This document shows positions 3,345-54,920 of a DNA stretch of 64,000 nt, in pieces. Numbering within the stretch: position 1 is the first letter of the stretch; each line of letters begins with the position of its first letter. The position numbers were made by a program, and so were the translations under genes. The notes beneath the pieces were generated by a model. It was given only the letters and a program-made list of their open reading frames with translations, did no database searches and had not been told where the DNA came from. The stretch lies in the IMG/VR virus record IMGVR_UViG_3300038425_000083, positions 12,069 to 76,068 of that record. The stretch is one strand, 5' to 3'. The stretch comes from a virus.

Positions 3345-6300
3345 ATGGAATACGTCATTATAGAGAAATCAGCTGAAGGTTCTAAACGAGCATGGCAAAC
3401 ACGTAAACATGGCGGTTCTCATAAAGAAGCAGAGAAGCCTAAACCTAAAGGCCCGGAGATAGACGCTCTTTTAACTAAGGAAGATAAGCTAAAAGAACAA
3501 GCTCTAAGAAAAGAAGTCGAAGTTTTTTCTGACGGCGACCTTTCTGCTTATGTCCAAGTCCTGCGGAAAAAGTTACAAACGAAATCCTGGAACGAATTAA
3601 ATGATTATGAGAAAAGATTTTATCCTCTTGTTCTTGATGAGCAAAGCAGGAGAAGACGTAAAGCTCTTGGGGCTATATTTGCTATAGAGATACCAGAGGT
3701 GCGTCTTGAAGATGTCAAGGAAAGAAAATCTCAACCAAGGAAGGTTTTAATGAATTCACTTCATGTAATCATAGAAAAATCAAGTGAAGGTGCTAAGAGA
3801 GCATGGGAAACAAGAAGACATGGTGGAAAGCATCTTGGCCCCGAGAAGCCAAAGTCAGCAAAGAAAGAGTTATCAGAAAGAGTTAGAGAACTTTCAGATG
3901 AACAACTTCAAGCTACTCATGAAAGGCTTGACAAGATACCATATTCCCAGATGAAGCCTGATGAAAGGAGACTATCTCATCTTGTAGCTTATGAACTGAT
4001 AGAAAGAAAGAGATTAAGACCCATTTCTCAAGACCCAATGGGAAGTCTTGCCAGGCAGGCTGCTAAAAAGGAAAGCGATGAACAGAGACTAAGAAGGAAG
4101 GGGCCTATTGAAACCCCTGGATTACCTGAAAGAGAACCTGAAGTTGTTGAAGAATTTAAAGTTGGAGACAAAGTCAAACATCCTACTTATGGAGAAGGAG
4201 TTGTTAGTGAAGTTCGCAAGATGAAAACCGGGACACCAGTTTATTATGTTAAGTATCCAGGGCGTGATTTGGCCTTCGCTCATGGAGACGAAGAGCTTGA
4301 AAAGGTTGAAGACGTAGCTAAGCCCAAAGAAGAAGTAAGCATGGGTACCAAAGTTCAGAAGTTAAAAGATAAGATCGAACAACAGCAAGCCGAACGGTAT
4401 GCGAAAGACTATCCTCATGTTGAACCTCCTAAAGTTACAGTCAAAGAGGGAGGGAAATACATTCGAGTTGACGTTGGAACTTCTGGCAAATACATGGTTG
4501 AGAAGGACACCGGGAACATCTATGGTATCAAAGGCTACGGAGTTATTCATAGAGGTCATTTCTATGGGACTTTGGATACGATAGATGATTTTAACTGGGG
4601 CGACTATGCAGCGTTTAGGACATTGTCTTTGAAAGATAGAGAATTCAAGGCTGAAAAGCCAGCTGAGCCGTCAGGTGTTGTTAGCATGGATACAGTCAAA
4701 GAAGATGTTAAGAAAATGCAAGAGAAGATCAATGCTCCTTGGGTTCATGTCCAGTCTTCAGATTTAGGTGGAGCAAAGAACGTTTCTATAATCATAAAAG
4801 CCTCGATGCAAAAGAAAGAAGAGTGGCATAATAACATACTACAGAACTCTCCCTATACAATGTTTCATTTGCTAACAGGTGGGGTGTTAGAGCAATTTCA
4901 AAGAAGCCCTGATTTGGATAAACTCGGAGCATTTAGAAAGACAAAAGTTAAGAGTGTGGTTGAAGCTATTCAAAAGATCAATAGCTATTTGAATCCACCA
5001 TTACCGCCAAGGAGAAAAATGCAGATCAAGAAGGGACAGATGTTTGTTATCATAGAGAAAGCCAGAAAGATTGGTTCTAAAGATAGTAAGAAGAGAAAGC
5101 GTAGAGGACAGAAAGAAAAAGAATTATATGAATTTTCTCACAAAGCAGCGTATGGACATTTGCCGTCATCTTCAACTCCATTTAAAGATGACTCCATTAG
5201 ATTCAAGAAAGCTGATATCCAGGTTCAACCATTCACAAGGACAGTCAAGGGAAAGTTTCAAAGAGTTCAACAGTTCTTTAGACCTGGCAAGGAAAGCTAT
5301 CCAGGAACAGAGAAGGGAGTTAATGACTTCATAAAGGATCATGTCGGACTTAGCAACTATGGGCATATCGTTGCAGACGAAGCAAAGAAGGAAGTTGATG
5401 TTGACGTTGCTGCGACAAACGCTTTTATGTCTGTTATGGGTCATGTTGTTGATAAAAAGGAGAAGCCGTCCTTAATCGCTAAAATAGGGTCTAAAATCAT
5501 TTCAAGAGGTGAACAGCCTACAATCCTTAGGCAGTTAGTCCAGAAAGATAAAAAAGCCTTCCAGGGGCTTTTAAAAGAACTCTTTAATAGGGTTCATGGG
5601 GATGTTAGAGAATTTAAGATGGAAATGGGCAAGTCCGTTGAAGGAATGCCTGTTGAATCGGTTAGAGCTCTTGCTGTTAGCCAGGCCATGAGAGAACTCA
5701 AAAAATCAAAATCTCCCGAGAAGGAAGAACATTGGAAGTGTAATAAGTGTGGGCATGAATTAGATGCCCCACATGAAGAAATGCTTAAAAGAATGGTGAC
5801 TTGTCCTGAATGTGGAGGAGCAATGGAGGAACTTAAGAAAGCTGGCTCAAGCGATGCTGCTCATAAAGCATGGCTTAAAAGAGAAGCCGAAAGAAGAGCT
5901 CTAAGAACAAGAGAGCGTGAAGGAACTAAGTTAGATGAACTCTCAGGACTTCAAGAAGCTGCAAGGAAAACCCGGGAACGAATATTTGCTCCAGGGAGAA
6001 CAGTTGAAACTCGGGGTAAGCGTCAGCTTACAGGAAAGGTAGTCAGGATAGTTGGAGATGCCCAGGCAAAAGTTCAATGGGAAGGTGGGTTGATAACCAT
6101 TGAGCCACTCATAGATTTAAAGCCAAAAGTTGATTTAGATATAAATCATCATGACCACATAGTTAAGAAGGGAACGTCAGAAGGAGCAAAGAAGGCCTGG
6201 TCACAAATGCAACATCAAGTTGCAAAGATTGCAGGTGTTCAAGAGAAGGTTAGAACTAAACAAAAGAATCAAGAAGAGATAGAACGACAAAAGAAACTTA

Positions 6301-6368
6301 AAGAAGGGGCCAAAAGTCTCAAGCGATTGGGTAAGCTTGGAATTTGGGGGAATAAAAATGATAGGTAA
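3345..6368 (+). CDS. 1007-aa tagged polyprotein (at least 6 tag-delimited units; KOW/SH3-like modules, Zn ribbon)
   Basis: K|S/A/G tags at 3366, 3777, 5058, 5208, 5838, 6168; FKVGDKVKHPTYGEGVV SH3/tudor-like segment; CNKCG..CPECG. Confidence 0.8.
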   Translation: MEYVIIEKSAEGSKRAWQTRKHGGSHKEAEKPKPKGPEIDALLTKEDKLKEQALRKEVEVFSDGDLSAYVQVLRKKLQTKSWNELNDYEKRFYPLVLDEQSRRRRKALGAIFAIEIPEVRLEDVKERKSQPRKVLMNSLHVIIEKSSEGAKRAWETRRHGGKHLGPEKPKSAKKELSERVRELSDEQLQATHERLDKIPYSQMKPDERRLSHLVAYELIERKRLRPISQDPMGSLARQAAKKESDEQRLRRKGPIETPGLPEREPEVVEEFKVGDKVKHPTYGEGVVSEVRKMKTGTPVYYVKYPGRDLAFAHGDEELEKVEDVAKPKEEVSMGTKVQKLKDKIEQQQAERYAKDYPHVEPPKVTVKEGGKYIRVDVGTSGKYMVEKDTGNIYGIKGYGVIHRGHFYGTLDTIDDFNWGDYAAFRTLSLKDREFKAEKPAEPSGVVSMDTVKEDVKKMQEKINAPWVHVQSSDLGGAKNVSIIIKASMQKKEEWHNNILQNSPYTMFHLLTGGVLEQFQRSPDLDKLGAFRKTKVKSVVEAIQKINSYLNPPLPPRRKMQIKKGQMFVIIEKARKIGSKDSKKRKRRGQKEKELYEFSHKAAYGHLPSSSTPFKDDSIRFKKADIQVQPFTRTVKGKFQRVQQFFRPGKESYPGTEKGVNDFIKDHVGLSNYGHIVADEAKKEVDVDVAATNAFMSVMGHVVDKKEKPSLIAKIGSKIISRGEQPTILRQLVQKDKKAFQGLLKELFNRVHGDVREFKMEMGKSVEGMPVESVRALAVSQAMRELKKSKSPEKEEHWKCNKCGHELDAPHEEMLKRMVTCPECGGAMEELKKAGSSDAAHKAWLKREAERRALRTREREGTKLDELSGLQEAARKTRERIFAPGRTVETRGKRQLTGKVVRIVGDAQAKVQWEGGLITIEPLIDLKPKVDLDINHHDHIVKKGTSEGAKKAWSQMQHQVAKIAGVQEKVRTKQKNQEEIERQKKLKEGAKSLKRLGKLGIWGNKNDR

Positions 6369-10268: not shown

Positions 10269-10402
10269 AAGAAAGAGGCGTCAGCATGAAAGACAAAATG
10301 CGTAAGAAAGTTAAAAACACAAAAGCCTGGAAAGTACGGCATGTGATTGCTGTTAAGGAAGAGGCTAAGACAAAAAAAGACATGATTGAAAAGGGAGTCA
10401 GT

Positions 10403-11170
10403 ATGAAAGTTCAAGTTATTAGTTTAGATGAGGAGTTTGAAAAATCAACCGAGTCTGCCAAGAAAGCTTGGAAGAAAAGAAAACATGGGAAAGCATTCCA
10501 GTTCGGAGAAGGACGTGGTTATGTAGGAGGCCCGCCAGAGGGAGATCCATTTCCTCATAAGAGATCGTTAGGCTGGAAGAAATGGATAGAGAGAAATCCG
10601 GACTGGATTAAAGAGCATCCAAAATGGAAACCCCCAAAAGTGACAGGTATAACTTTTAGGAGACCAGGCTCAAAACTAAAGAAAGCCGAAGGACAAGTTG
10701 TTATTCCGGCTCACATGGCAACCGTCCATGGTAAGAAAGTTATGGTTCAGCAATCAATACCTTTCATGGCTCCTGGAAGACACGGAGATTATACCAAGAA
10801 AGTTCACACAACGGAGAGGGAAGAAGGGGGTAAAACTCATATCAAATATCATACAACTGATGTAGTGTCTTTTGATTCCAATGAGATAACCTTAAGAGAT
10901 GGTGGATGGATGACAAGTTCCACAAAGAAGAGAATTAACCAAGCTTCAACAGAGCATGGACTTGGCATTAGCATCTTTCAGCATAAGAATGATTGGTTTG
11001 TTGCATACAAAGGAAAGACTATTCCTTTCAGAGACGAAATGACAATCAATCGTGAAAGAGGAGATACTCATTATGACAAATGGTTTGATATGACAGAGAA
11101 GGAAAAGAAAACTCTGGCAAGTTATGAAAAACGGTATCATCGAGCGGAAGAGATGGCAGGCCGCAAATAG
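10403..11170 (+). CDS. two-unit tagged protein
   Basis: VISLDEEFEK|STESAKKAW (10442) and LKK|AEGQVVIPAHMATVHGKKV (10682); C-terminal YHTTDVV..GGWMTSSTKKRINQ domain; start ATG10403 after GGGAG (ORF track starts 10286). Confidence 0.75.
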   Translation: MKVQVISLDEEFEKSTESAKKAWKKRKHGKAFQFGEGRGYVGGPPEGDPFPHKRSLGWKKWIERNPDWIKEHPKWKPPKVTGITFRRPGSKLKKAEGQVVIPAHMATVHGKKVMVQQSIPFMAPGRHGDYTKKVHTTEREEGGKTHIKYHTTDVVSFDSNEITLRDGGWMTSSTKKRINQASTEHGLGISIFQHKNDWFVAYKGKTIPFRDEMTINRERGDTHYDKWFDMTEKEKKTLASYEKRYHRAEEMAGRK

Positions 11171-11171: not shown

Positions 11172-14100
11172 ATGGAACAGATACAAGCTGTAAAGAAAAC
11201 AATTTATGGGACTCCTGTTTACTTTGTTAAATCCTCTGAAGGATCAAAGAAGGCATGGGAAACAAGAAGATATGGCGGAAGTCGCAAAGACCTTACTAAG
11301 ATAAAGCAAGATCATGAAGACCTAAAGAACAAATACAAAGACCTTATAGAATGGAGTAGAACAGACTCATGGGAGAGGCCAGAGTTCTCTGGTTCGCCCG
11401 AGACCGTAAAGAAGTTCATAGCAGACGTTCAAACTCATCATACGAAGATGGTCGATGCTTTTGGAAAGAACAAAACGAACATAGGTATCGAGGAGGATTT
11501 AGGAAGAGCAACCAAGAACCCTAATGTTCAAGGATCGTTTGGTAATGCTTTAAGTGCTCTTTATGGGATGGAAGATAAGATAAGATGGCTTAACCGCTAT
11601 CTCCCAAAGGAACAAGAGAAAGGGTGGAAAGGCAAGGAAAGATCAGAGGCAAGCTGGAAGGAGCTCATGTCAAAGTCATCTGAAGGAGCAAAGAAAGCAT
11701 GGCTAACAAGAAAATATGGCGGAAGTCACGCAGCATTAGAAGACAAGAAGTCTAGAGAATCTTTCAAGAAAGAGTTTTCGCTCAGTGATGTTGAAGGCGG
11801 TTCTAAAGATGATGTTCAGAGGCTTCACGAATCTTTAAAAAAGATAAATGAAAAAATACAGATTGATGGGAGAGGTAAACTATCCTTCAGTATTAAAGCC
11901 CCTCTTCAAAAGACTTGGTTCGGAGATTTCGATGAGGGAAATGATACCATAGAGATACATCCGAAACATCTTGAGAAAGTTGAACATGAGTATCTTCATT
12001 TTGTTTTTAAATACAGATTTGGAAATCCTATGAGAATAGGCCCAGATCATTACGATAAGTTTGGAAGTAAAAGATTTAGTATTCTTGACCAAAAAGAAAT
12101 ACCCGATTATGAATCGTTTAAAAAGGTAAAGTCAAAAGGATCATACGAGGATTATCATAAATTTGCAAGGGCGTTCGGTCGAAAATTATTTAAAAAGATA
12201 ACTCCTGAAGGTTTAGAAGATTCATTTGATGCATTTATTAAAAAGGTTGCAGATAATAAATCTTTAGATGGGGGGAAGAAAAAAGCGTTTACAGAACTTC
12301 TTCAAATATATAGGAACTTTTATACGAAACCTGGTATCTTAAAAAAGATGCAAGATTTGGTAGATCTCCCTGTTTATGCATTAGAACCTACAGAACTCTT
12401 TGCGAGAGCTGGGGAACTTTACATGCATGGAACAACTTGGTCTTTGGATGTTATCGAAGCTGATCTTACAGGAGAACAGGATTTAAAAGAGGACAAAGCC
12501 AAGAACGTAGCTTCAACTAAATTATTTCAAAGTCAGATTAAAGGGTGGGGAAACAAATATCTTAAAACCGGAGTTATGAGTAAATCTCTTTTTGTTATCT
12601 TTGAGAAATCTTCGGAGGGGGCAAAGAAAGCTTGGTTGACAAGGAAGTTCGGAGGAAGTCACAAAGGAGAAGAGAAGCCAAGTCTTAAGGGTCTTTCTTC
12701 TAAAGCTATTTTAGAGATGAGTCCAGAGGATCGTGAGAAATATCTCAAAGACATGGATTCATGGAATGAAAAGTTTGGCATTCCTAAAAAGATTGAGGTA
12801 TCCGAAGCCAACATTAACAGATTTGTCGATAAACCAGATGAGGCTATAAGAGAGTATAACAGCATCCAGCAGAAGTATGAGATAAAAAAGAAAACAAGTG
12901 TTAAGAAAACAAAGAAGTCTAAATCTAAACCTAAACCATTTAAGATGCAACTGGTCATTCCTCATGAGGAGACTGAAAGGAGAATTCATGAACATCTTCA
13001 ACAAGCGAAAAGAGAATCGTCAACGACACGTTACTTGGAAGGACGTACTCACGATGTGGACATATGGACAAAAGAGGATTTATTGGCTGCAGTGCCTAAG
13101 TCTCCAAAAGGTTCTCAATTCTATGCCAAAACAAATGTCCAAAACATCAAGCGGGTCTTAGAGTTTAAAAAACCAAATGAAGTAGGTGGGATTCATACAA
13201 TCGTTGTTCTCGAGAATGGTAAACCAGTTTATCAATACATTGATACCACAACAGAGAAGAACTCAAGGAAGAAATTTGTACGATCAAAGAATGTCGAAAA
13301 GAATATTGGGGAGATACGAGCCTTCTATAAGAAAGGAATGGGCAAAACTGGATATGACAAGCAGATGGGTACTATCCTTTCATTGATTGACCTGTATACT
13401 ATTCGGGTAGGAAGCAAAGCAGATGTTGATGAAGGTGTGAGGAAAGTTGAAGACTTAAAGAATAGAGCTCTTATTAAAGCGCCAAAAGATATAGCAAGAG
13501 TACCATATGGGCTACCATATGATCGAAACACGGTTTATTACGTTTTTATTAAAGATGGGCAAAGGCTTATCGGCCCATCCGAGAGAATGGATGAGATCAG
13601 CGATGAGATCAACGAAGCCAGGAAGATAAAAGATAAAGCTAAAGTAGAAACTCTTAAGCAAGAGAAGAAAGACCTTGTTAAACCAATGCCCGAGGATTGG
13701 AAGGAAGTTTATAAGTTAGGACACTTTGGAGCAACCCAGTTAGAGGCCAGGCATGTCAAGATCGAGCCCGAGTATAAAGGAGTTGGAACTAATTTTGGAA
13801 GTGTTGTTCACCTTGATTTCATTGGTAAATCTGGGGTTCATTGGGAGTTCCCAGTTAATGATACTGGAATTGCAGAAGCTTTAGCCGATCTGTCCAAAGG
13901 TAAGTCCGGGCGTGATCCTATATTCCCGGATGTTAAATATCAAAAGGTTACGGGTTTGCTCAAAGATAATTGGAAGTGTCTTGCAAAAGATTTTAGAACT
14001 TATCATGCAACAAAAACATTTGCTGAAGCAACTAAAGATTTTCCAGTCCCAAAGACAGAGCAGGAACTCAAATCAATAGAAGGTCAGATATTGGAAAGAG

Positions 14101-14636
14101 TTTCTGGTTTGCTCTGGAACACGAAGGGAATGGCTAAGAAGTCTTATATTGACCCTGCTGTCTATGGAGCGTGGAGAGCAGGCTTATTAAAAGTAATGAT
14201 GGAAGCTGCCCCGATTAAGAAGTCATTGCTTTTTAATGTGATCTTAGAGAAATCAGTTGAAGGCACAAAGAAAGCATGGCTAACAAGAAAGTATGGAGGT
14301 TCCCACAGAGAGCAGAAAAGCTACTATACAACTTCTGGTGCTATGACGATGAAGGAGTTTATAGAAACTGAAGTTGAAGATAGAGGGAACTATCCTTTAT
14401 CTGAGGTTAGAGGCTGGATTAAAAAGTATGGTATCAAAAGAGATCAGCAAATTATGTGGGTATCCCCCAAGAAGTGGAGAGCTTATAGCTATACTCTTCC
14501 GGCAGAGGAAATGGATTCTGCAAGAGATGTAGATGAATCTAAAATGGATGTTACCGAAGTCAAAGGTAAAGAAGGTTTTATAATTCCAGAGTCAGACGAT
14601 GGAAGCGAAGGTTTTTTATTTGTTTTCAAGAATTAA
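11172..14636 (+). CDS. four-unit tagged polyprotein: unknown, zincin (LPD1/MPTase-like), DNA topoisomerase IB, unknown
   Basis: tags at 11229, 11673, 12606, 14250; HEYLH..EPTELFARA; TopIB motifs TIRVG, GATQLEARHV, FIGKSG, KDFRT, LWNT..AKKSYIDP. Confidence 0.85.
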   Translation: MEQIQAVKKTIYGTPVYFVKSSEGSKKAWETRRYGGSRKDLTKIKQDHEDLKNKYKDLIEWSRTDSWERPEFSGSPETVKKFIADVQTHHTKMVDAFGKNKTNIGIEEDLGRATKNPNVQGSFGNALSALYGMEDKIRWLNRYLPKEQEKGWKGKERSEASWKELMSKSSEGAKKAWLTRKYGGSHAALEDKKSRESFKKEFSLSDVEGGSKDDVQRLHESLKKINEKIQIDGRGKLSFSIKAPLQKTWFGDFDEGNDTIEIHPKHLEKVEHEYLHFVFKYRFGNPMRIGPDHYDKFGSKRFSILDQKEIPDYESFKKVKSKGSYEDYHKFARAFGRKLFKKITPEGLEDSFDAFIKKVADNKSLDGGKKKAFTELLQIYRNFYTKPGILKKMQDLVDLPVYALEPTELFARAGELYMHGTTWSLDVIEADLTGEQDLKEDKAKNVASTKLFQSQIKGWGNKYLKTGVMSKSLFVIFEKSSEGAKKAWLTRKFGGSHKGEEKPSLKGLSSKAILEMSPEDREKYLKDMDSWNEKFGIPKKIEVSEANINRFVDKPDEAIREYNSIQQKYEIKKKTSVKKTKKSKSKPKPFKMQLVIPHEETERRIHEHLQQAKRESSTTRYLEGRTHDVDIWTKEDLLAAVPKSPKGSQFYAKTNVQNIKRVLEFKKPNEVGGIHTIVVLENGKPVYQYIDTTTEKNSRKKFVRSKNVEKNIGEIRAFYKKGMGKTGYDKQMGTILSLIDLYTIRVGSKADVDEGVRKVEDLKNRALIKAPKDIARVPYGLPYDRNTVYYVFIKDGQRLIGPSERMDEISDEINEARKIKDKAKVETLKQEKKDLVKPMPEDWKEVYKLGHFGATQLEARHVKIEPEYKGVGTNFGSVVHLDFIGKSGVHWEFPVNDTGIAEALADLSKGKSGRDPIFPDVKYQKVTGLLKDNWKCLAKDFRTYHATKTFAEATKDFPVPKTEQELKSIEGQILERVSGLLWNTKGMAKKSYIDPAVYGAWRAGLLKVMMEAAPIKKSLLFNVILEKSVEGTKKAWLTRKYGGSHREQKSYYTTSGAMTMKEFIETEVEDRGNYPLSEVRGWIKKYGIKRDQQIMWVSPKKWRAYSYTLPAEEMDSARDVDESKMDVTEVKGKEGFIIPESDDGSEGFLFVFKN

Positions 14637-14850
14637 GATCGACCTACAAAGAAGGTTATATGACCGATAAAGAATTTGGAGAACTATTGGATAAACTTTG
14701 GCCGTCAACTGAATTTGACGATGACGAACTACTCGATGAATCTTTAGAGGAAGAGGAGGATGACTAATGAACTACTTTATGGGCGGAGCAATAATTTTTC
14801 TTTGGCTGCTGATATTCATATATCTTCCATACAGAATATAGAGGAATAGA

Positions 14851-23954: not shown

Positions 23955-24435
23955 TGGATATTTGGAAGAACGGCGAAAAGATGGTCGTCTGGCAAAGCAT
24001 ATAGAACGTCTTGCAGCTATGTCCCGGGGTAAATCTAAGCCTCAGCATAGTAAATTAATGAAGCAAGTTATGAAGGGTAAAAATATTGAATCCACTAAAA
24101 GACTTTGGCAAGATGAAAACTATGCTAAAAATTGGGCACAAAAGTGTGGGCTAAAACCTAATAAACTTGAAAAAAGTTTCATGATCTTTTTGGGAGAAGA
24201 GGCTCCGAACGAATGGAGATATGTGGGCGATGGTTCAGTATGGATTGCAGGTAAAAATCCTGATTTCATTCATAAGGTAGAACGCAGAGTTATAGAATTG
24301 TTTGGTTCTTATTGGCACAAGAAAGAAGAAGAGAAAGAAAGAGTTTCTCATTTCGAGAAATACGGTTTTGAATGTATTATTGTTTGGGATAAACAATTTA
24401 AAGATTGGAAACAAAGTCTTGGCTATGTATTTTAG
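23914..24435 (+). CDS. Vsr/DUF559-like PD-(D/E)xK nuclease, probable homing endonuclease
   Basis: PNKLE..RYVGDG..NPDF..IELFGSYWH..IIVW; basic N-terminal repeats. Confidence 0.75.
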   Translation: MEENLKKKTANLLSGYLEERRKDGRLAKHIERLAAMSRGKSKPQHSKLMKQVMKGKNIESTKRLWQDENYAKNWAQKCGLKPNKLEKSFMIFLGEEAPNEWRYVGDGSVWIAGKNPDFIHKVERRVIELFGSYWHKKEEEKERVSHFEKYGFECIIVWDKQFKDWKQSLGYVF

Positions 24436-24451
24436 CCGAAGGAGGAGACAA

Positions 24452-25120
24452 ATGGCGATAAAGGGAATAGTAAGAACTCTGGACGAGATCAAAAAGAGTG
24501 ACAAGAAACCTAAGTTAACAAAAGATGAAGCCTTACAATGGCTAAGAGTCAGAATATCACGTAGGGTCAAAGATGAACTTCGCTATCCGGACAAAGATTC
24601 CCCGCCTACAATAGATAATGTAGCCCAAAAGGTCTACGAGAACATTGTTGACGATTGGACTTACAACTCGGAGATTTTGGCAGCTTGTCGTGCAGTTGGA
24701 TTTAACCAAGCATATGTTTCGTCTATCGTAACTGGATTCTTTGATGGCGAAGGAAAACCACTTCCTATAAAGGGTAGTAGCGGGCCTGAAGTTGCGAAGA
24801 CGGCTGGCGAACCAGCTGTAGAACTTGGAAGGTCGCTTTCAAATCTTACGACTATAGATGATGAGTTTGATGAATTGGCTAAGACATCCGAAGGAGCCAA
24901 GAAGGCATGGTTAACAAGAAGAGGTGGTTCTTCTCATAAAAAAGCTGGCAAGTCTGCTAAATGGAGCAAACTTGATAGTATCTTTAAGAAGCATCATGGA
25001 GGTAGAGGTGCTCTTGTTAAAAAAGTTAAAGCAGCTGGTATGACAGAGAAAGACCTTGATAGGTATCTCAATCTTACAGATACTAAAGCTGCAAGGGCTG
25101 AGTTTGCGAGAGGGAAATAA
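24452..25120 (+). CDS. two-unit tagged protein
   Basis: GGAGG RBS; IVRTLDEIKK|S and LTTIDDEFDELAK|TSEGAKKAWLTRR (24881). Confidence 0.75.
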   Translation: MAIKGIVRTLDEIKKSDKKPKLTKDEALQWLRVRISRRVKDELRYPDKDSPPTIDNVAQKVYENIVDDWTYNSEILAACRAVGFNQAYVSSIVTGFFDGEGKPLPIKGSSGPEVAKTAGEPAVELGRSLSNLTTIDDEFDELAKTSEGAKKAWLTRRGGSSHKKAGKSAKWSKLDSIFKKHHGGRGALVKKVKAAGMTEKDLDRYLNLTDTKAARAEFARGK

Positions 25121-25944: not shown

Positions 25945-27615
25945 ATGGGCTTATTGGACAGATTTTTTAAGACAAGACTTGCAGCCGAAGTTGCAAAAGT
26001 AGAAGAACGTATGATTGGAGTATCAGAGTCAAGAGCACTTGAGAAGGCCAAAGAGATTCATCAAGTTTGGCTTGATGACTTAAGCAAGTCGAATGATGCT
26101 CAGCCAAAAACTCTTTTGCATGATCCTTTCCAGTTGCTCGAGTCGATGGGATACAAAGAACGTCCTATGATGATAACTTATGATACACTTAGGACTATGT
26201 CTGAAAGAAACCCGATCATAGCTGCAGTCATCAATACAAGAGTTAACCAGATTGCTGCTTTCTCGTCTCCTCCGAAGACTAAGTACGATATTGGTTACTC
26301 GGTAGAGATGAGAGATGACGAAGCAGAGCCCACGATTGAAGACGAGCGAAGGATGAAAGAGATCGAGAGCATGCTTGAGAATACCGGTGTTACTTCTTTG
26401 GCTCCTGAGGAACGAGATGACTTTGATTCTTTCTTAAGAAAGTTAGGAAGGGATTCATTGACCTTTGACCAAAGCTGTTTTGAAATAGTAGATGGTCGTG
26501 GAGGAAAGCCTGTTGCTTTCTATGCGGTTGATGCATCAACTATACGTCTTGCGACAACTCCTAAATACATGAAGGATGTTAGGGACTTTACTCTTCAAGA
26601 CATTGGCCCGGAACCTCAAAGATCAAAGGACACAAGATATGTTCAAGTTATAAGTGGAAAGGTTGTAAACACTTATACGGAAGATGAGATGTCTTTTGGT
26701 ATTCGGAACCCAAGAACAAACATCAAGCAAAATGGGTATGGGACTGCCGAGCTGGAGATTCTGGTCAATACGGTAACGGCTCATCTATGGGCAGAAGAGT
26801 ACAACCGAAGATTCTTTAGTCAAGGTAGTGCTCCTAAAGGGATTATACATTTTGAAGGTAACGTTCCAGAGAATCAATTACTTGCTTTTAGAAGACAATG
26901 GCATGCTCAAGTTATGGGAGTCTTTAATGCTTGGAGAACCCCTGTTATTGCGGCCCCGGCTAAACTTCAGTATACAAATCTTCAGATGTCTAACAGACAG
27001 ATGGAATATAGTAACTGGATTGATTATTTGATCAAACTGATTTGTGCAGTTTATCTTATTGATCCATCTGAGATTAATTTTGAACTAAGAGGCGGAGCCC
27101 AGTCTCAGGAAGGCCCACTGTTTGAAAGTCATTCAGAAACAAAATTGAAGATGAGCCGAGATCGTGGCTTAAGACCTTTCTTAAAGTTTATTCAATCTTG
27201 TATTAACAAGGACTTGATTTTTAGAATAGACCCAAGATATGAAATGAGGTTTACAGGATTGGATGCCAAGACCGAAGAGCAAATGTTAGAGTTAAGAATA
27301 AAGGAGATCACGAACTACAAGACCATAGATGAAGTTAGAGCTCTTGATGACCTGGAAGCTCTTGGCCCGGAGAGAGGTGGCGACTTGATCATGAATCCTT
27401 CGTATATCACATTCATGACACAGAAAGCTATGGCTCAGCAAATGGGCGGTGGTGGCGGAGCGATGCCTGGTAAAGAAGGAATGGACTTTGGAGAAGAGGG
27501 TCACGGATACGAAGGTATTGATTTTGGTGCCGAAGAAGGAATTGATTTTGGAAATCCAAATGTGGAACATCCAAATAAACTTGACTTCGGAAGGGAAGAG
27601 AAGGGACAAATCTAA
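25945..27615 (+). CDS. phage portal protein
   Basis: IIAAVINTRVNQ, RDSLTFDQ, FYAVDASTIR, RNPRT..GYG..ELE, NRRFFSQG..PKGII, YLIDPSEINF, DRGLRPFLKFI..IN, TIDEVR: motifs typical of SPO1/A511-type portals. Confidence 0.92.
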   Translation: MGLLDRFFKTRLAAEVAKVEERMIGVSESRALEKAKEIHQVWLDDLSKSNDAQPKTLLHDPFQLLESMGYKERPMMITYDTLRTMSERNPIIAAVINTRVNQIAAFSSPPKTKYDIGYSVEMRDDEAEPTIEDERRMKEIESMLENTGVTSLAPEERDDFDSFLRKLGRDSLTFDQSCFEIVDGRGGKPVAFYAVDASTIRLATTPKYMKDVRDFTLQDIGPEPQRSKDTRYVQVISGKVVNTYTEDEMSFGIRNPRTNIKQNGYGTAELEILVNTVTAHLWAEEYNRRFFSQGSAPKGIIHFEGNVPENQLLAFRRQWHAQVMGVFNAWRTPVIAAPAKLQYTNLQMSNRQMEYSNWIDYLIKLICAVYLIDPSEINFELRGGAQSQEGPLFESHSETKLKMSRDRGLRPFLKFIQSCINKDLIFRIDPRYEMRFTGLDAKTEEQMLELRIKEITNYKTIDEVRALDDLEALGPERGGDLIMNPSYITFMTQKAMAQQMGGGGGAMPGKEGMDFGEEGHGYEGIDFGAEEGIDFGNPNVEHPNKLDFGREEKGQI

Positions 27616-30420: not shown

Positions 30421-30489
30421 AGCATTACGTGAAAATTGAAACTTGAATAACCGCCCATGAAAAATTGATACTCTCTTTTGTGGGTTAGT

Positions 30490-31146
30490 ATGCTTATTAA
30501 TGCAGCAGATATTCTTAACATTATAGGAACGTCTGGTTATTCAGGGTTAGGAACGTCAGGCTATTCTGGAACAGGTTATTCTGGTTATTCTGGAGCAGGT
30601 TACTCTGGGGCATCTGGTTACTCAGGATACGATGCCAGGGCAGGATATTCTGGTATTTCTGGATACTCTGGGATAGTTAAAACCAGGCTGGATTATTCGC
30701 CTGAACTTGTTTTTACAGTTGATGTCACTGGTACGACAGAACCAATCACAGAAGTACGCTTAACTATTCATGACAATAGAAAGGTTAGCTATACAGGACA
30801 ATATAAAGAAGGTAGGGCTTTCTTTAAGCTGGATGAACTTAAAAAATATTTTAAAGTTGGAGCATTTAAGTATGATCTTGAAATATTTATTGGTAATCAA
30901 TTCTTTGTTCCTTTGTCTGGTCAAATAGAGTTTACTGAACCAATAAGAGTGACAGCCGATAAAGAGTCCCTCAAAGAGCCTCCTGTTGCGATAGTCCAGG
31001 CTGGAATTTCTATGGCTAAGGCTTTAGACTTCGGGATTCCAAAACCAGAACCCAAAGTTGTTAAAAAAAGTGAGAGTGAAAAAGTTGTAAGAAGAAAAAC
31101 AAAACAAAGATTTGTAGTTTTAGATTTTAAAGAGAAGAGGGGTTAA
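30490..31146 (+). CDS. SGYSG-repeat protein with Ig-like beta domain
   Basis: GYSG repeated 8 times at about 30535-30672; beta-rich C-terminal domain; terminal FVVLDFK. Confidence 0.7.
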   Translation: MLINAADILNIIGTSGYSGLGTSGYSGTGYSGYSGAGYSGASGYSGYDARAGYSGISGYSGIVKTRLDYSPELVFTVDVTGTTEPITEVRLTIHDNRKVSYTGQYKEGRAFFKLDELKKYFKVGAFKYDLEIFIGNQFFVPLSGQIEFTEPIRVTADKESLKEPPVAIVQAGISMAKALDFGIPKPEPKVVKKSESEKVVRRKTKQRFVVLDFKEKRG

Positions 31147-33190: not shown

Positions 33191-34513
33191 GTGAGAGCAG
33201 TTATAAGAAGACCCCAATCTGAATCATATATTATTTTGGAAAAGGCCAAGAAGACGCCTTCAAAGAAAGTTCTTATTTGGGACTGCGATTATGGGACAGA
33301 ACTTGCGGCCAGATTTGCTAAAGATGGACATGATACTCTTTATTATACGGAGTGGCCTGAGTCCCATTCCCATTTTAATAAGTTTGCCGTCGGCTTAGGA
33401 ATGGATGGCATTAAGAAGATTAAGCATTTCTTTAAATACTACAAAGATGTTGATTATATTATTTTTATGGAAACGGGACGTGGAGACTTGTGCAACGATC
33501 TTAGAAAAGAAAAAATTGCTAATCCTGATTCCTCTTTACCTTATATCTTCGGTGCTGGTCTCGGTGAGAAGTTAGAACTGAAGCGTGCCTGGGCCAAAGA
33601 GATTCAAAAGCAGGTGGGACTTCCAGTCGCACCTTATAAGATAATTAAAGGAGTTGAAGGAGTTATTAACTATCTGAAGAAGAATCCTGGGAAGTGGATT
33701 AAACAGGATATCTTTAGAGGAGATAAAGAAACTTTCTATGCTGAGGATGAATACGGGGCAAGAACAGAACTTAATTATTTGCGTCCCAAAATCGGGCCGT
33801 TTGAAGAAACGTATGAGTTCATAGTAGAAGACCCGGTCAAAGATGCTGTAGAAGCTGGTTGGGATTTATTTTTTAATGGTAATGATTTTCTTAAGCCTTA
33901 CTTATGGGGATATTGCCAAGACTGGTTTTATGTTGGCAAATTTACCGATAAAATGCCTCCTGTATTGGAGGATGTGGCTGTGAGAATAAAACCTATCCTT
34001 CAAGAGTTGAATTACAGAGGAATTATATCAATAGAATGCCAAGTTGTAAAAGACGGCACAGGATTTGTAACCGATTGGACTACAAGATTTCCTTTGCCGT
34101 TAGGTTTTGCTTATGAATACGGCTTAAAGAACTTTTCCGATGTCATGTTTGCGGTTGCCGAAGGCAAAGATATAGAACTTGACATTAAGAACAAGTATAT
34201 TGGTTACATGGAAGTTCAATCTATGGATGTTCAAGATAGTTGGCTTAAAGTAACCTTCCCAGAGAAGTATAAAGATAATATCAAATTAAGAAAGCCGACT
34301 AAGGTTGAAGGAAATTACTATGCTATCCCGACCATCGATGAAGTTTTATGTGCTGTAGTTGATTCTAATTCAAATATGAAAAATATGTTTGAGAGGATTT
34401 GTGATATAGGAACACAAATTAAAGCATCTGGATGTGATGCTGGTCAAGCTTCCGATGCTTACGGAATTTATGAAGAGATAAAAAAAGGGAAGAAGAGGGG
34501 GCTTGATTTCTAA
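33191..34513 (+). CDS. ATP-grasp ligase (PurD/GARS-like) with YIILEK|A leader
   Basis: LELKRAWAKE..GLP, FIVEDPV..VEAGWDLFFNG, YRGIISIE, DWTTRF. Confidence 0.7.
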   Translation: MRAVIRRPQSESYIILEKAKKTPSKKVLIWDCDYGTELAARFAKDGHDTLYYTEWPESHSHFNKFAVGLGMDGIKKIKHFFKYYKDVDYIIFMETGRGDLCNDLRKEKIANPDSSLPYIFGAGLGEKLELKRAWAKEIQKQVGLPVAPYKIIKGVEGVINYLKKNPGKWIKQDIFRGDKETFYAEDEYGARTELNYLRPKIGPFEETYEFIVEDPVKDAVEAGWDLFFNGNDFLKPYLWGYCQDWFYVGKFTDKMPPVLEDVAVRIKPILQELNYRGIISIECQVVKDGTGFVTDWTTRFPLPLGFAYEYGLKNFSDVMFAVAEGKDIELDIKNKYIGYMEVQSMDVQDSWLKVTFPEKYKDNIKLRKPTKVEGNYYAIPTIDEVLCAVVDSNSNMKNMFERICDIGTQIKASGCDAGQASDAYGIYEEIKKGKKRGLDF

Positions 34514-35253
34514 TGATAGTCTATGTTGATGACCGATTAATGAAAGCTGACCGTAGCCATGTTGCCTTTGAAAGAACTGTTAAAGGCAAGCAACAACATA
34601 TCAAACAAAAGGGTTCGAAGAAAGAAGAAGAGACTGAGCAAAAAAATAAAAAGCCTAAAGGCGAGCAGGCCAGAACCGAAGCCAAAGGGATAGTCGATAG
34701 TATAGGAAATACTATGAAAATATTTAAACAGTCTGAAGGGATGTGCGGGCCGACGAGTGTTAGCATGGCATTGACAAAATTCAGAAAAAATTATTCTCCG
34801 GAACAAATAGCCAAGATTGCCCACTCTACGGCTTCGGAAGGAACAGATAGCGGTGAGTTGGTAAAGGCAATTAAATCTGTTGGTATAGATGTTGTTGAAT
34901 ATAAAAATTTAAGTAGGTTACATGCCTTGCATGTTCTTAGGAATCATACCAAGAATGGAGAGCCTTGTATCGTATCTTGGCTTAAAACAAAACTCGTATC
35001 TTCAAGTGAGTCCAGTATAAAGGGGTCAGAAGGGATGAAGCCTGGTTTTGAAGAAGTCCCGGACATGAAGACGATATCGAAAAAGCAAGCAGAAGAAGCA
35101 GAGCATTATTCAGTTGTTAAAAGTGTAGACGATAAGTATGTTCATATGCTTGATCCGTTGGAAGACAAAGAACAATCACTTCCAATTAAATATTTTTTGG
35201 ATAGATGGTGGGATTCAGAGGATAAGAGATGGTTCCTGGTCTTAACAAAATAG
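34513..35253 (+). CDS. tagged C39-like cysteine peptidase
   Basis: LMK|A plus hairpin tag; QSEGMCGP, EGT, HYSVV, MLDP. Confidence 0.8.
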   Translation: MIVYVDDRLMKADRSHVAFERTVKGKQQHIKQKGSKKEEETEQKNKKPKGEQARTEAKGIVDSIGNTMKIFKQSEGMCGPTSVSMALTKFRKNYSPEQIAKIAHSTASEGTDSGELVKAIKSVGIDVVEYKNLSRLHALHVLRNHTKNGEPCIVSWLKTKLVSSSESSIKGSEGMKPGFEEVPDMKTISKKQAEEAEHYSVVKSVDDKYVHMLDPLEDKEQSLPIKYFLDRWWDSEDKRWFLVLTK

Positions 35254-42676: not shown

Positions 42677-43015
42677 ATGAAAAAGAAACCAAAAAGTTTT
42701 TTAACCTTTGAAAGTTTTAGGGATAAGATAACTGTTATTTCAAGCATCTTGCTTATATTTGGTATGCTATTTGCAGCATGGATGTTTCTCGATAATAGAT
42801 ATGCCCAAAAGAAAGTTGAACAGAAACTGGATTATGTAAAATATAGCCTGCAGTTTCAAATGAACAACGATAAGATTTCGACATTGATGTCTTTGTACCC
42901 AAAAATAGAAACTGCTGATCCAGTCGTAAAGCAGCAACTTCAAACTTATATGGATACAAAGTTAGAACTCGTCCGTAAGATGGAAGTTTTAGAAAAGTTG
43001 GGGATAGGTCTATAA
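42677..43015 (+). CDS. single-TM coiled-coil protein
   Basis: TM segment then LDNRYA and coiled coil; TAATG-coupled to MuF. Confidence 0.6.
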   Translation: MKKKPKSFLTFESFRDKITVISSILLIFGMLFAAWMFLDNRYAQKKVEQKLDYVKYSLQFQMNNDKISTLMSLYPKIETADPVVKQQLQTYMDTKLELVRKMEVLEKLGIGL

Positions 43016-46000
43016 TGCCAAGGGTAAGGTTTGAACCTTTAAAGATAACAACTCTCTACGAAGAGAAAGTTGCTCAAAGCGTTAAGGATCGCTATAAGAG
43101 TCACATTAATAGAGAATCCCTTCGTCTCGTAAGTAACATCACGGATGACATGAGGGATAGGATTGCTGGATTAATGCACGAGGGTATTGACGAAGGTAGG
43201 TCAGTTAGTGCAACTGCCAGCACACTTCTTAAGACTGGTCTGGACAAAGGAGTTTTTAGATCGGCAAGACGAAGAGCCTATCTCATATCAAGAACTGAAT
43301 TACATAGAGCAAGACAACAAGGAGCTTTTGATCTTTATAGAGCAAATCATATTGATCTTGTTAAGTGGATTGCCATAGGAGATGAAAGAACATGCGATAC
43401 GTGTGCACCCCGAAACAACCATGTTTATAGGCTTAGCGAGATAGAGGGAGACTTACCGCCTATTCATCCAAGATGTAGGTGTAGAGTTGTGCCTTCAGAT
43501 TTTCAACTCGAGATAAGTGTTAGACGTGATCGAAGAGGAAAGATAATGGAAACAAGAATTTCTCCAACTCCTCAGAACTACAAATACTATGTGAGTCTTG
43601 ACAGGAAGCCAAGAAGACGAGTTAAGAAGTCACTCGAGAAGGCTGTTTCAGTCAGAGCATTTACAAGGTACGTTCCAGGCAGAGGGTTTCAAAGATATAA
43701 ACAGTTTCAAAGGGATGTAGCTGTTATTGATAAACCTGTTCCAAGGGATTTTTCATATGAGATAGCTAACTCTGGGGAAGATGTAGCAAATAAGATTGAG
43801 GAACGAAGAGAAGGAAAAGTTCGAGCTACTTATGCCGTTAATGCGGTTAGGGCTTGGAACATGGAAGCAAAAAATAAGTATCCTAACACTAATTATCTCG
43901 GTGACGTTGGCGTTAGAGAATGCTTACAAAATAGTTTGGATGCGGTCACAGAATCTTTAGAAAAAGGAGAGATAAAGAGGGGCAAGATCGAAATAGAACT
44001 TACTCCTCATAAAGAAAAGTACTCTGTCAAAGATAATGGAATAGGAATGTCCGATACAGACATTCGTGACAAGTTCCTTGCTCTTTACGGAACAGGGAAA
44101 GATATCAAAGGTAGATTCGGAGGATTTGGAATCGCTAAGGCTGTTATCTTGGCTCCTTCTGAAAGTTCACATTGGCAACTCAAAACAAGAGATAATTTCT
44201 TTGATGACAAGATGGCCTCTGCAAATGATCAGATTAAAGCCATTCCAAAAATTCAAGGAACACAAATTGATGTTTGGGCAGGGGAGGATATTGTTAGCGA
44301 AGATGCCAAGAAATATGTGGAGACGACTGAAGTTCCTAAAAATATAGGTATAAGATTTAAGTGGGCACTTGATGATTGGGAAACTTTAAAGAATCCTTTT
44401 CTGAAATTAAAGAGTGAAGTAAGTCATACTACGGCAAAGGGTTCTGAAATAACAATGTCTTTCTTTCCAAGACCGCCATCGGAATACAGAAATCATATGA
44501 TTTTGAGACTTGTTGACAAAAAGACCGGGGCTAAATTAACTCAGGCCATAAACCCTATATTTGGAGATTTTAAAGGGGCTTTAGTTGTTGATATAGAAAC
44601 AAGTGCAACCCCGGGCTCCGGTGGATATCCTCTTACCGATTCGAGAATGGGATTGAAGTGGGGAGAAGTTCAAGATTTTGTTAACACAGAAATAAGTCAA
44701 AGAACAAGAGAAAAGAAATCAGCTGAGCGAGTTGGTCAACAAGAGAAGTGGCTGGACTTACCGGAAGTTCCTGGCTGGAAAGATACTCTCGAGAGAATTA
44801 AAACAGATACAGGTTATGCATATCTTAAAGACACAATAGATAAAATTTGGCAAAAAGATTTTGTGTCGCAACATTTAAAAGGTATAGTATCAACAGATAT
44901 AGGAGAACAACCTTTTACCTCTCTTGAAAATATAAAGATACTTAGGGATGTTGGCTTTAAAGGTTCGGATGGCGGGACTGTTGCTCAAGCAAAGTTGATG
45001 CTGGCATTTGAGTCTTTAGCTCAGATGTATTCACAAACTTTGCAAAAAGCTGGTATGCATTGTCCGTTGTTTGGATTTCATGCTCTGTTGTCTAAAGCTA
45101 CATCGACCGGAGTGAGACTTGCACATTTTAGCAGACAAGAACATACTTTAGGTTTGGATATTAAATCTTTTCCTAAGAGTGCTTTCGCAAGTCCGGTTAG
45201 TCTTGCCTTAGAAATGGTCAACACTATTCAGCATGAGTTCACTCATAATTGGAGGAGGGAACACGACGAAGGTTTCACTTCTCAACTTGGGCAAATACAA
45301 ACGGTAACAGCGCCCTTATTTAATAGGGCTTTAGAGGTTGCAGGAGCGCTTCTCGGCAAGGATACCAGAATAACTATAGATACACCGCAAGGAATAGAAA
45401 AAATCAAGAGAAGCCATATTTGGACAATAGGAGAAAAACCAAAACAGCCTGAATGGAGAGCAGAACTTTTTCAGTTGTACAAGGAGATAGGGGGAAAGTC
45501 AGGAGCGACTGCAGTTTACAAGATTGCTGAAAAATATAACATTCCAGAGAAACGTGTAAGAATGGTTCTTGCCGGATACAAAGCGGCACAAAGCCGAAAG
45601 GAGAAGAAAGATGTCACTAAATCCATTACAGAAAGCAGCGTTGGATTCCGAGGCCCCGAGAGAACAAGTCATCCAAGGTTTGTTATCCAACTTGATAAAC
45701 GATTGCCTGATGAAAGCAGGGATCGATCCCAATGGGCCGATAGCAGGATCGATGCGGAAGCTGGGACAGGACGTTTGGGACTTGAGGGACGCTCTGGAAG
45801 AAGAGGGTTATTGGTAATAGAGAAAGCCAGATCTCACAAGTATCTCAGAAAAATACCGAGAGGATCGGGAAGATATGAATATATCTATCAGAGACCAGAT
45901 GTAGGTTTTCACGGAACCACTTCTAAGTTTTTAGAAACTATTCTTAAAGAAGGTTTAAGAAGTTCAAAAGATACCGGAGTTGCGTTGTATAGTGGAGAAT

Positions 46001-52132: not shown

Positions 52133-53680
52133 ATGGAAAAAGGCGGATGCGGAGCGATAGAGAGGGACTTTAGTTTTTGGATGCCTCTTGAAGTAGTTAA
52201 GGGGCAGAAGGGCGAAATGAGAATTGGAGGGATAGCTTCCGATGAAGAGTCCCATGATCTCCAAGGTGAAAAAGTTTTTGTCGATGGTTTAGATACTTCA
52301 TATTTGCTTCAAAGAGGTGCTTTTAATTGGGATCATCTAAAAGGCCCAGAAGATATACTTGGCGAGATTGATACTGTTCAAAAGCAAGAAAAGAAGCTTT
52401 ATGTTGAAGGTTTTTTATATCCCAAAGTTAAGAAGGCCATTGATGTATTCGATTTGATGCAATCTCTTAAAGAGTCTGGTAGTAATAGGAAGTTAGGGCT
52501 CTCCTTGGAAGGTAAAGTTAAAGAAAGAGATGAAAAAGATGCTAAGGTCATAAAAAAGGCCTGGATTAAGAACGTTGCCATAACATACAACCCAATTAAT
52601 CAAGGTGCCTGGGTTGATATGATTAAATCGTTGGGAAACTTTACTTTTGATAGTTGTGATAAAGACTGTTCCCGTTGTCCATTATGTGAAGCCAAAAAAG
52701 AAGTTAAATTGGAGCCGGTTAAGAAGGCAACAGCAACGCCTCCTTCTTTTATAGTTCAGGACGGTATCAAATACTATCCAAAAGATTTTGGTGAGTTAAA
52801 GAAAGCTGGCGAAGGTGGAACAAGTGGTTCCGGAGGAGCTGCTCCTGCACCGCCACAAAGTGGTGGTCTTGCTGCTGGACATGATAACCCGGCATCGTCC
52901 GGAGGGATTAGTGGTTCGGCTCTTAGGAGACAATCCTTAGATAAGAAAAAGAAAAAGACGACTTACGATGAAGAGCATGTAGGTCAGAAGGTTGAACCCG
53001 AGAAGTCCGAGACAGACAAGAAGAAAAAGAAAAAGATGACTAAGTCTGAAGTCTTTGAGTTTATTAAGTCTGAGGGAAATTCGGAGGATAGAGCTAATCT
53101 TCTTACTGATTTAGTATTTGCAATGATTGAAGTTGCACCGATCTTAGCAAAATCCAGCGAAGGAGCCAAGAAAGCTTGGATAACCAGACGTAAAGGTTTG
53201 ATTTCTCTTGCTCAGCAAAAGAAAAAGAAGAAAGACCCAAGAGATACCCCTGAATTTTGGGAAGAACGATACGGAAAGAAGAAAAAGGGTGCTGATGTTA
53301 GAACAACTGGAAAGGGAGTAACTCCAAGTCCTATTTTAAGTGTTAAAGAAAAGGAAGATTGGAAGAGGCATTCAAAGATGCCTAAGAAAGTACAGAAGGA
53401 AGCACCTAAAGAACTTGCTCCGACAGGGACAGCCAAACTTGTTGCTCATGAAATTCATAGAATAACTTCCATGTCTGATAAGGCCTTACTTAATCGAGCT
53501 ACCAAGATTACCGATCCTAATAAAATGAAGAACTTTTATCTTGCTGCAAAGTTGAAAGGAAAAGGCGATTTAGCCGGAGCAATAATTACTGCCGGTGGGA
53601 GAATTGGTATTAACCCGCATGAATTTGGTACTAATGCCAAAGAAACTACTAAAGAATTCCGAAGACAACTGTCGGCGTAG
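52133..53680 (+). CDS. prohead (capsid maturation) protease with long C-terminal extension
   Basis: DLQGE..GLD..GAFNWDH..LYVEGFLY..LGLSLEG..NVAITYNPIN; position before scaffold and MCP. Confidence 0.88.
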   Translation: MEKGGCGAIERDFSFWMPLEVVKGQKGEMRIGGIASDEESHDLQGEKVFVDGLDTSYLLQRGAFNWDHLKGPEDILGEIDTVQKQEKKLYVEGFLYPKVKKAIDVFDLMQSLKESGSNRKLGLSLEGKVKERDEKDAKVIKKAWIKNVAITYNPINQGAWVDMIKSLGNFTFDSCDKDCSRCPLCEAKKEVKLEPVKKATATPPSFIVQDGIKYYPKDFGELKKAGEGGTSGSGGAAPAPPQSGGLAAGHDNPASSGGISGSALRRQSLDKKKKKTTYDEEHVGQKVEPEKSETDKKKKKKMTKSEVFEFIKSEGNSEDRANLLTDLVFAMIEVAPILAKSSEGAKKAWITRRKGLISLAQQKKKKKDPRDTPEFWEERYGKKKKGADVRTTGKGVTPSPILSVKEKEDWKRHSKMPKKVQKEAPKELAPTGTAKLVAHEIHRITSMSDKALLNRATKITDPNKMKNFYLAAKLKGKGDLAGAIITAGGRIGINPHEFGTNAKETTKEFRRQLSA

Positions 53681-53689
53681 GAGATAACA

Positions 53690-53893
53690 ATGAAGCGAGA
53701 CGAAGCAATAGCTTATTTAAGAGGCCAGAATTATTCAAGAAGATTAAGTGCTAAGTTAGCTGATATTGCTTTGCTTCGTAAGACAAATAGTATTTTTGCT
53801 GATGCTATTAAGTCGGCACTTGAGAAGGCTAAGCCTAAGAAAAAAGGAAAAAAGATTAAAGGCCAGGATAAACAAGGTAATTTAGGATGTTAA
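53690..53893 (+). CDS. small basic head-module protein
   Basis: MKRDEAIAYLRGQNYSRRLS resembles MTKSEVFEFIKSEGNSEDRA in the protease; LEK|A then Lys-rich tail. Confidence 0.6.
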   Translation: MKRDEAIAYLRGQNYSRRLSAKLADIALLRKTNSIFADAIKSALEKAKPKKKGKKIKGQDKQGNLGC

Positions 53894-54159: not shown

Positions 54160-54211
54160 ACGTATATATAGACGTGAGGATACAGTCCAAAAAAGGCGGT
54201 GTTATAAAAGA

Positions 54212-54907: not shown

Positions 54908-54920
54908 AATAGGATTCTCT

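Follow-up and report, generated by a model that had tools for sequence, protein, structure and literature searches.

In this work we identified a type IB topoisomerase (TopIB) within a 1154-residue protein of an uncultured phage, where the enzyme is flanked on both sides by a 19-residue peptide tag. The analysed window is a stretch of 64,000 nucleotides (positions 12,069 to 76,068 of the 76-kb IMG/VR virus record IMGVR_UViG_3300038425_000083, with a CheckV completeness estimate of 65%), and the protein is encoded at 11172-14636 by an open reading frame (ORF) that is called the polyprotein ORF below. The polyprotein holds a real type IB topoisomerase, a result that we regard as nearly certain, and the enzyme, with its intact active site, is very probably catalytically active, relaxing DNA independently of ATP. 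On balance, the sequence features slightly favor the view that the ORF encodes a head-cargo polyprotein of an uncultured phage with Herelleviridae-like capsid genes, with TopIB as the fourth unit.

The topoisomerase was recognized by Pfam model PF01028 in the polyprotein ORF (E = 4.9e-21), and the Pfam Top1B_N_bact model gave no match in the ORF. A search of 1.8 billion representative proteins yielded 1453 matches at E < 0.001. The profile of a 52-relative alignment matched Deinococcus TopIB with E = 8e-61 over residues 26-301, and the same family profile matched variola TopIB with E = 6e-31, the catalytic residues being aligned in both cases. Besides one Gly, the only columns without variation in this alignment were the four catalytic positions that could be scored: Arg in IRVG, Lys in GKSG, Arg in DFR and Tyr in KSY. 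The five catalytic residues of the window enzyme are as follows:

13404-13406, plus strand, catalytic R761 in TIRVG, aligned with Deinococcus R137

13827-13829, plus strand, catalytic K902 in FIGKSG, aligned with Deinococcus K174

13995-13997, plus strand, catalytic R958 in KDFRT, aligned with Deinococcus R239

14118-14120, plus strand, catalytic N999 in LWNT, aligned with Deinococcus N280 (His in poxviruses)

14145-14147, plus strand, catalytic Y1008 in KSYIDP, aligned with Deinococcus Y289

The distance from Asn to Tyr is 9 residues, as between N280 and Y289 of Deinococcus. The AlphaFold model of TopIB reached a mean predicted local distance difference test (pLDDT) value of 81.9, with a core above 90. 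All 22 Foldseek matches of this model at E < 0.001 were TopIBs (human, variola, Leishmania and Deinococcus), including variola TopIB with a TMt of 0.68 (full length) and Deinococcus TopIB with E = 4e-9. A tyrosine recombinase or telomere resolvase was considered and rejected, as XerH and the Brujita integrase gave E values of about 1 vs 1e-12 for TopIBs. With TopIBs as the only significant matches and recombinases at E of about 1, the protein is therefore a topoisomerase and neither a recombinase nor a telomere resolvase.

A preliminary description of this DNA had already placed the catalytic R, K, R, N and Y in these motifs, with a bacterial-type Asn in LWNT instead of His, had set the enzyme between two full tags, and had noted an insertion of roughly 100 residues between IRVG and GATQL. 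These points were borne out: every residue is at the position given above, the LWNT Asn aligns with Deinococcus N280, tag copies flank the enzyme at 12606-12662 and 14250-14306, and the insertion comprises 102 residues at 13413-13718.

In the translation of the polyprotein ORF, four copies of the 19-residue tag divide module M2, module M3, the TopIB unit and module M5, in the order leader, tag, M2, tag, M3, leader, tag, TopIB, leader, tag, M5. Each unit has the basic tag at its start and a short hydrophobic strand ending in Lys at its end. The ATG at 11172 is likely the polyprotein start because the stop codon of the upstream ORF directly precedes it, and the database copy of the protein (P0002) is also of 1154 amino acids. 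The features of the ORF are:

11172-14636, plus strand, polyprotein ORF, 1154 amino acids from ATG 11172 (1170 amino acids with ATG 11124)

11229-11285, plus strand, tag copy 1 (KSSEGSKKAWETRRYGGSR), with a leader ..TPVYFV in front

11286-11672, plus strand, module M2, 129 amino acids, no family found in Pfam or PHROGs

11673-11729, plus strand, tag copy 2, with an in-frame ATG at 11667 and a Shine-Dalgarno-like (SD-like) GGAAGGAG just 5' of it

11730-12575, plus strand, module M3, 282 amino acids, with an HEYLH (HExxH) motif at 11985-11999

12576-12605, plus strand, hydrophobic leader 3 (MSKSLFVIFE), beginning at an in-frame ATG with an SD-like GGAG upstream

12606-12662, plus strand, tag copy 3, the 5' boundary of the TopIB unit, model pLDDT below 50

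12663-12953, plus strand, N-terminal extension of the TopIB unit, 97 amino acids, helical, then basic and disordered

12954-14210, plus strand, TopIB proper, an N-terminal beta-sheet domain and the catalytic domain

13413-13718, plus strand, insertion in TopIB, 102 amino acids, a small beta sheet and a helical hairpin

14211-14249, plus strand, leader 4 (PIKKSLLFNVILE), holding K-S-x-x-[FY]-V-I-L, which is the C-terminal end of stand-alone relatives

14250-14306, plus strand, tag copy 4, the 3' boundary of the TopIB unit, model pLDDT below 50

14307-14633, plus strand, module M5, 109 amino acids, isoelectric point 5.1 (mildly acidic), with a C-terminal leader-like FLFVFKN

For M3, Pfam and PDB sequence searches were without match; the closest protein-language-model clusters carry LPD1 (PF18796), with a score of 0.94 and 182 shared features, which is taken as a lead only. 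An Atlas search for relatives of M5 returned 0 matches, and PHROGs held no family for the polyprotein ORF as a whole.

The boundaries of the TopIB unit were compared with those of its closest relatives, P0005-P0009, which are stand-alone proteins of 448-502 amino acids with 33-42% identity. Their C-terminus is K-S-x-x-[YF]-V-I-L, the same motif that adjoins the downstream tag in the polyprotein, and their N-terminus carries a different motif, L-x-P-x-K-x-x-[IV]-x-G-K-x-x-x-Y-x-A-I-R-Y, termed here the hairpin tag. In the window TopIB the hairpin motif is degenerate and is preceded by the 97-residue extension, which bears the AW-x-TR tag; this extension has no counterpart in the stand-alone relatives, and its end aligns with their hairpin tag. 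A maximum-likelihood tree placed the window TopIB in a clade of 11 (Shimodaira-Hasegawa-like approximate likelihood ratio test support 99), the other 10 of which are stand-alone, and the state changed between fused and stand-alone at least 11 times across the tree. This pattern indicates that the TopIB unit is a mobile module with conserved ends and that the fusion in the polyprotein is derived. A scan of bacterial genomes recovered distant TopIBs only, with no prophage relative and no clue to the host.

Neighbors of the relatives in the metagenomes include small ORFs with a leader of the type T-I-D-E-E-F..K/S and a similar hairpin-like motif. Around one stand-alone TopIB (L063:1531-5383), for example, several small ORFs all begin with M-Q-E-x-R-V-V-[ST]-I-D-E-E-F-x-E-L-Q-K-[SG], after which comes a basic hairpin-like motif. 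Leaders and tags of this second, T-I-D-E-E-F type are also present in the window, in the ORFs at 413-784 and 24302-25120.

The consensus of the polyprotein tag is K-S-S-E-G-A-K-K-A-W-x-T-R-[KR]-x-G-G-S-H, a basic, Trp-containing peptide. It occurs in 14 copies in 11 ORFs of the window, some N-terminal and others internal, and N-terminal copies have a short hydrophobic leader in front, e.g. M-x-Y-V-I-I-E-K. The same codon is used in 45% of the positions with identical residues between copies, and selection therefore acts on the tag peptide rather than on a DNA repeat. Tags and leaders had pLDDT values below 50 in the model, and the junctions are predicted to be disordered. A DNA-pattern scan showed that three other viral contigs carry the variant G-T-S-E-G-A-K-K-A-W-D-T-R-G-R-G, at most 3 copies lying in one ORF, so the tag is not limited to this phage. 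The variant (GTSEGAKKAWDTRGRG) was located at L058:3-2174 (IMGVR_UViG_3300025167_000008) and in L057 and L059 (IMGVR_UViG_3300025581_000001), and one copy directly precedes a RelA/SpoT domain, a known MuF-type effector. Against deposited phage genomes a 25-residue tblastn query of the tag gave 0 matches, the query being too short for significance, and no occurrence of the motif was found in the literature.

The same leader and tag pattern recurs in many more ORFs of the head region and in the head protease itself. Every large ORF of the window is on the plus strand, and the head genes are:

25945-27615, portal, a gene separate from the polyprotein

43015-49707, MuF polyvalent protein, 2230 amino acids, with GHKL ATPase, CCA-adding (PolyA_pol), HD and tRNA_NucTran2_2 domains

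52133-56417, head protease, scaffold and major head protein

52133-53680, plus strand, head-maturation protease (phrog_1028, E = 4.5e-39), the candidate processing enzyme

The head protease is 38% identical to the procapsid protease of Bacillus phage SP-10, and the capsid protein is 46% identical to capsid proteins of Bacillus Herelleviridae. The protease bears one tag copy after its catalytic domain (K codon at 53150). With 515 amino acids it is about twice as long as its SP-10 homologue, and the extra C-terminal half opens with the tag copy. The capsid N-terminus has LNK/AL.AGY in common with the SP-10 'major capsid protein precursor', and the shared L-N-K-A-L-x-A-G-Y fits a rule of cutting at Lys-Ala or Lys-Ser, without proving cleavage. 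In SP-10 the portal, protease, scaffold-like and capsid genes are adjacent; in the window about 24 kb, mostly of tag-bearing ORFs, lie between portal and protease, an apparent large gain of putative head cargo.

A TopIB in this setting has parallels among other uncultured viruses. The scan of viral contigs with a single protein query found no relatives, and the alignment-based scan of IMG/VR found 53 TopIB loci, in many of which TopIB lies at the C-terminus of, or inside, a protein of 600-1700 residues. Pfam architectures in the viral contigs include MuF-TopIB, MuF-Hint-TopIB, portal-MuF-TopIB, ART-TopIB and GNAT-TopIB-Acb1-MuF; among 48 long TopIB proteins drawn from the best 150 database matches, 9 have MuF and 13 a portal domain. 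One locus (L007:8468-12991) encodes a 1508-residue chain that joins GNAT, TopIB, the anti-CBASS (cyclic oligonucleotide-based antiphage signaling system) nuclease Acb1 and a MuF-like region. Among deposited phage records TopIB was detectable in 12 of 50,697, mostly jumbo phages, and the polyprotein ORF matches none of them; it also gave 0 matches to deposited phage genomes by blastn and tblastn. The earlier statement that TopIB is uncommon in tailed phages thus agrees with the deposited genomes, but not with the uncultured viral contigs and their 53 loci. We found no paper on a phage virion TopIB or on MuF-TopIB or portal-TopIB fusions, and TopIB or topoisomerase is absent among the domains named in PMC5512222 and in PMC5576092 including its supplements.

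Downstream of the polyprotein ORF lies a small gene for an acidic peptide, which the preliminary description had overlooked:

14660-14767, plus strand, small acidic partner ORF, 35 amino acids, net charge -15, with an SD-like GAAGG 5 nt upstream

Its product is 49% identical to that of the ORF 3' of the closest stand-alone TopIB (L061). In at least 12 examined loci a small ORF (41-62 residues, net charge -3 to -23) lies 3' of TopIB, often overlapping its stop codon, and by this synteny the acidic peptide is a conserved partner of phage TopIB genes. In the window the acidic ORF begins 24 nt past the polyprotein stop, so that M5 lies between the enzyme and the partner gene, which does not directly follow TopIB. 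M5 was examined as a fused version of the acidic partner and rejected, with an hhalign probability of 0.1 and the true partner ORF lying 3'. Complex prediction for the TopIB core and the acidic peptide gave a score of 0.59 vs 0.01 for the best control, which is weak support; three runs shared at least 81% of contacts, with a partner pLDDT of at least 60. In benchmarking, 58 of the 80 solved complexes and 2 of the 110 mismatched pairs passed the mark of this prediction; passing scores of 0.60 or lower came from only 7 of the 80 and from both mismatches. The alignments were self-supplied, and these benchmark counts hold only roughly. Binding of the modelled peptide to TopIB is rated likely because the synteny is conserved.

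The 102-residue insertion is located between the first catalytic Arg (IRVG) and the GHFGATQL strand, a stretch of about 12-15 residues in the TopIBs of Deinococcus and variola. An insertion of 60-120 residues is present at the same site in the 5 closest relatives, is placed differently in 2 further relatives, and is lacking in the next ones. Modelled alone, it formed a small beta sheet and then a helical hairpin (pLDDT 72). Fold searches gave no convincing match (Foldseek E > 2; VIA-align Z ≤ 3.7, mostly on the helical hairpin). A CarD/Tudor-like RNA-polymerase-binding module, which was considered for the insertion, is unsupported by these values, and a new fold is not implied.

Taken together, a tag-bounded TopIB among head genes, with an acidic partner gene, makes carriage in the capsid probable, as in poxviruses, and we consider it reasonably likely that TopIB is loaded into capsids. 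In the proposed course of events, the tag would direct the polyprotein to the procapsid, and the head-maturation protease would cut the Lys-Ser junctions to give a TopIB of about 60 kDa. The acidic peptide probably sits on the DNA-binding surface of TopIB, which would keep the enzyme off DNA in the producing cell. After leaving the capsid with the DNA, the enzyme would provide a swivel without need of ATP in the newly infected cell. Judged from the features described, the chances that TopIB is released by head-protease cleavage at the tags are about even, and its chief target may with equal probability be the incoming phage genome itself or something other than it, such as host DNA. The description of the enzyme as virion-delivered agrees with the tag-bearing head-gene block, the tag in the head protease and the MuF and portal fusions elsewhere, which are support from context. 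Its description as cleavable is made plausible by the disordered junctions, the C-terminal boundary of the stand-alone relatives and the capsid LNK/A, and has against it the alternative of internal Met codons with SD-like sequences.

Several known systems can be compared with this arrangement. Deinococcus radiodurans TopIB (PDB 2f4q/3m4a) has the same two-domain architecture, the Arg-Lys-Arg-Asn-Tyr set and the Asn 9 residues before the Tyr, whereas the window enzyme has in addition the 102-residue insertion and the 97-residue N-terminal extension and is located inside a 1154-residue phage protein between tags, with an acidic partner gene. Poxviruses carry TopIB in virion cores. The vaccinia and variola enzymes (PDB 2h7f, 3igc, 1a41) share the fold and, by our proposal, carriage in the virion for the start of infection; they differ in having His in place of Asn and in being stand-alone proteins of 314 residues of a eukaryotic virus, while packaging in the phage is deduced. 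T4 internal proteins have a capsid-targeting sequence and are trimmed by the head protease. A procapsid-addressing peptide trimmed by the head protease is likewise proposed here, by analogy to T4 internal proteins and phiKZ-like inner-body proteins; in the window, however, the elements are a hydrophobic strand, Lys-Ser and a 19-residue basic tag reiterated in polyproteins, the protease is of Herelleviridae type and the cutting is predicted.

A further comparison is with the polyvalent and MuF- or portal-fused effectors (Iyer et al. 2017, PMC5512222; Jamet et al. 2017, PMC5576092), which likewise have several enzyme domains per chain, a head-gene setting and predicted packing and injection; M3 resembles their LPD1, as a lead. 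Polyvalent proteins are defined by at least two effector domains in a packaging context; the polyprotein certainly has TopIB and lies among head genes, and the second domain would be M3, by protein-language-model similarity with Pfam silent. The polyprotein differs in its repeated unit-separating tag, which is undescribed in the two papers, and in having no MuF or portal domain. It would be a new, tag-bounded polyprotein form of virion-associated polyvalent effector proteins, with TopIB as a cargo not found in the literature searched.

Several observations weigh against the head-cargo interpretation. Virion presence, cutting and DNA relaxation are all deduced from sequence and context. Pfam found no MuF or portal domain within the polyprotein ORF, the 3 other tag-bearing phage genomes are without TopIB, and a literature search found no cut-site specificity for Herelleviridae-type head proteases. 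The complex prediction for the acidic peptide was a weak pass. The hydrophobic leader is also found at the extreme C-terminus of proteins with no Lys-Ser after it, and a simple cleavage-site reading leaves these C-terminal leaders unexplained. Such leader-like ends (YVVLDLKK.., FVVLDFKEK.., FLVLTK and FLFVFKN) were observed in the ORFs at 1908-2753, 30478-31146, 34513-35253 and 11172-14636; the leader can thus stand at the C-terminus too, and a model of it as a simple N-terminal signal does not account for this. In-frame ATGs with SD-like sequences lie just 5' of junctions 2 and 3, and separate products are therefore possible by internal initiation.

This last point leads to an alternative in which adjacent tagged genes were recently fused and retained their ribosome-binding sites, so that the units are made from internal starts and no proteolysis takes place. 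The GGAAGGAG before ATG 11667 and the GGAG before ATG 12576 agree with it, the predicted peptides (MSKSSEG.., MSKSLFVIFEKSSEG..) resemble the N-termini of neighboring ORFs, and the window protein is the sole fused member of its clade. On the other side, the spacing from SD to ATG is short (2-3 nt), no comparable ATG or SD precedes junction 4, and later cleavage at the leader would still be compatible with such starts, and we consider internal initiation distinctly improbable as the sole source of the units. The polyprotein could also remain a single uncleaved polyvalent chain of 130 kDa, the tags serving as flexible basic linkers or as DNA- or capsid-binding peptides. Polyvalent proteins of 2-15 domains are frequent in phages, and processing is known for only a part of them (PMC5512222), many MuF- and portal-TopIB fusions lack such a tag, and a basic, Trp-containing peptide suits nucleic-acid binding. 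Since leader and tag are also N-terminal on single-domain ORFs, where a linker would be useless, and since the head protease bears the tag and the stand-alone relatives stop exactly at the leader, an uncleaved chain seems unlikely.

The acidic partner gene would be equally expected beside a toxin-like enzyme directed at the host. TopIB would then be delivered or made early and would relax or nick the host chromosome for host shut-down, with the acidic peptide giving immunity. A conserved small partner gene that often overlaps the TopIB stop codon is a hallmark of toxin-immunity pairs, in MuF proteins the C-terminal domains are toxins accompanied by immunity genes (PMC5576092), and TopIB is found together with ART, Zeta-toxin and RelA/SpoT-type effectors. 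Yet the active site, fully conserved and competent for religation, agrees with a true topoisomerase, an inhibitor would be needed equally to keep a DNA-binding enzyme free for packaging, and MuF-TopIB is unmentioned in PMC5576092 and its supplements, which leaves the toxin explanation doubtful, though worth considering. Finally, TopIB may not be packaged at all but act inside the cell in replication, transcription or recombination, the tag being used for hub docking, localisation or regulation. In line with such a role, deposited jumbo phages (Lu11, Xanthomonas phages) have their TopIB annotated as an ordinary topoisomerase; given the location in the head block, the tag in common with the head protease and the portal- and MuF-fused homologues, we regard an unpackaged TopIB as very improbable.

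Further observations concern other genes of the window. A second polyprotein at 3345-6368 (1007 amino acids) has at least 2 full tags, a zinc ribbon and a match to phrog_3308, together with a weak Lar-like restriction-alleviation match and a weak CarD/TRCF-RID match. The ORF just 5' of the polyprotein (10286-11170) contains a Kyanoviridae Gp96 domain (PF23790, E = 1.8e-10). At 59124-63057, 3' of the head genes, a heptosyltransferase-like GT9 (E = 5e-32) and a weak GT2 match were found.

As a broader and more tentative proposal, leader, Lys-Ser and tag might form a general addressing and release code that loads a dozen or more enzymes into the head, TopIB being one of them, silenced by a DNA-mimicking peptide until ejection. 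The TopIB of the polyprotein, with its clear unit boundaries and a conserved candidate inhibitor, provides a defined fragment and a defined peptide. If the head-cargo interpretation is true, DNA topology would join the functions that phages bring at infection, and tailed phages, like poxviruses, would carry their own topoisomerase. Two tools would follow as well: a naturally occurring peptide that inhibits TopIB, and a tag that could be transferred to foreign proteins to load them into phage heads.

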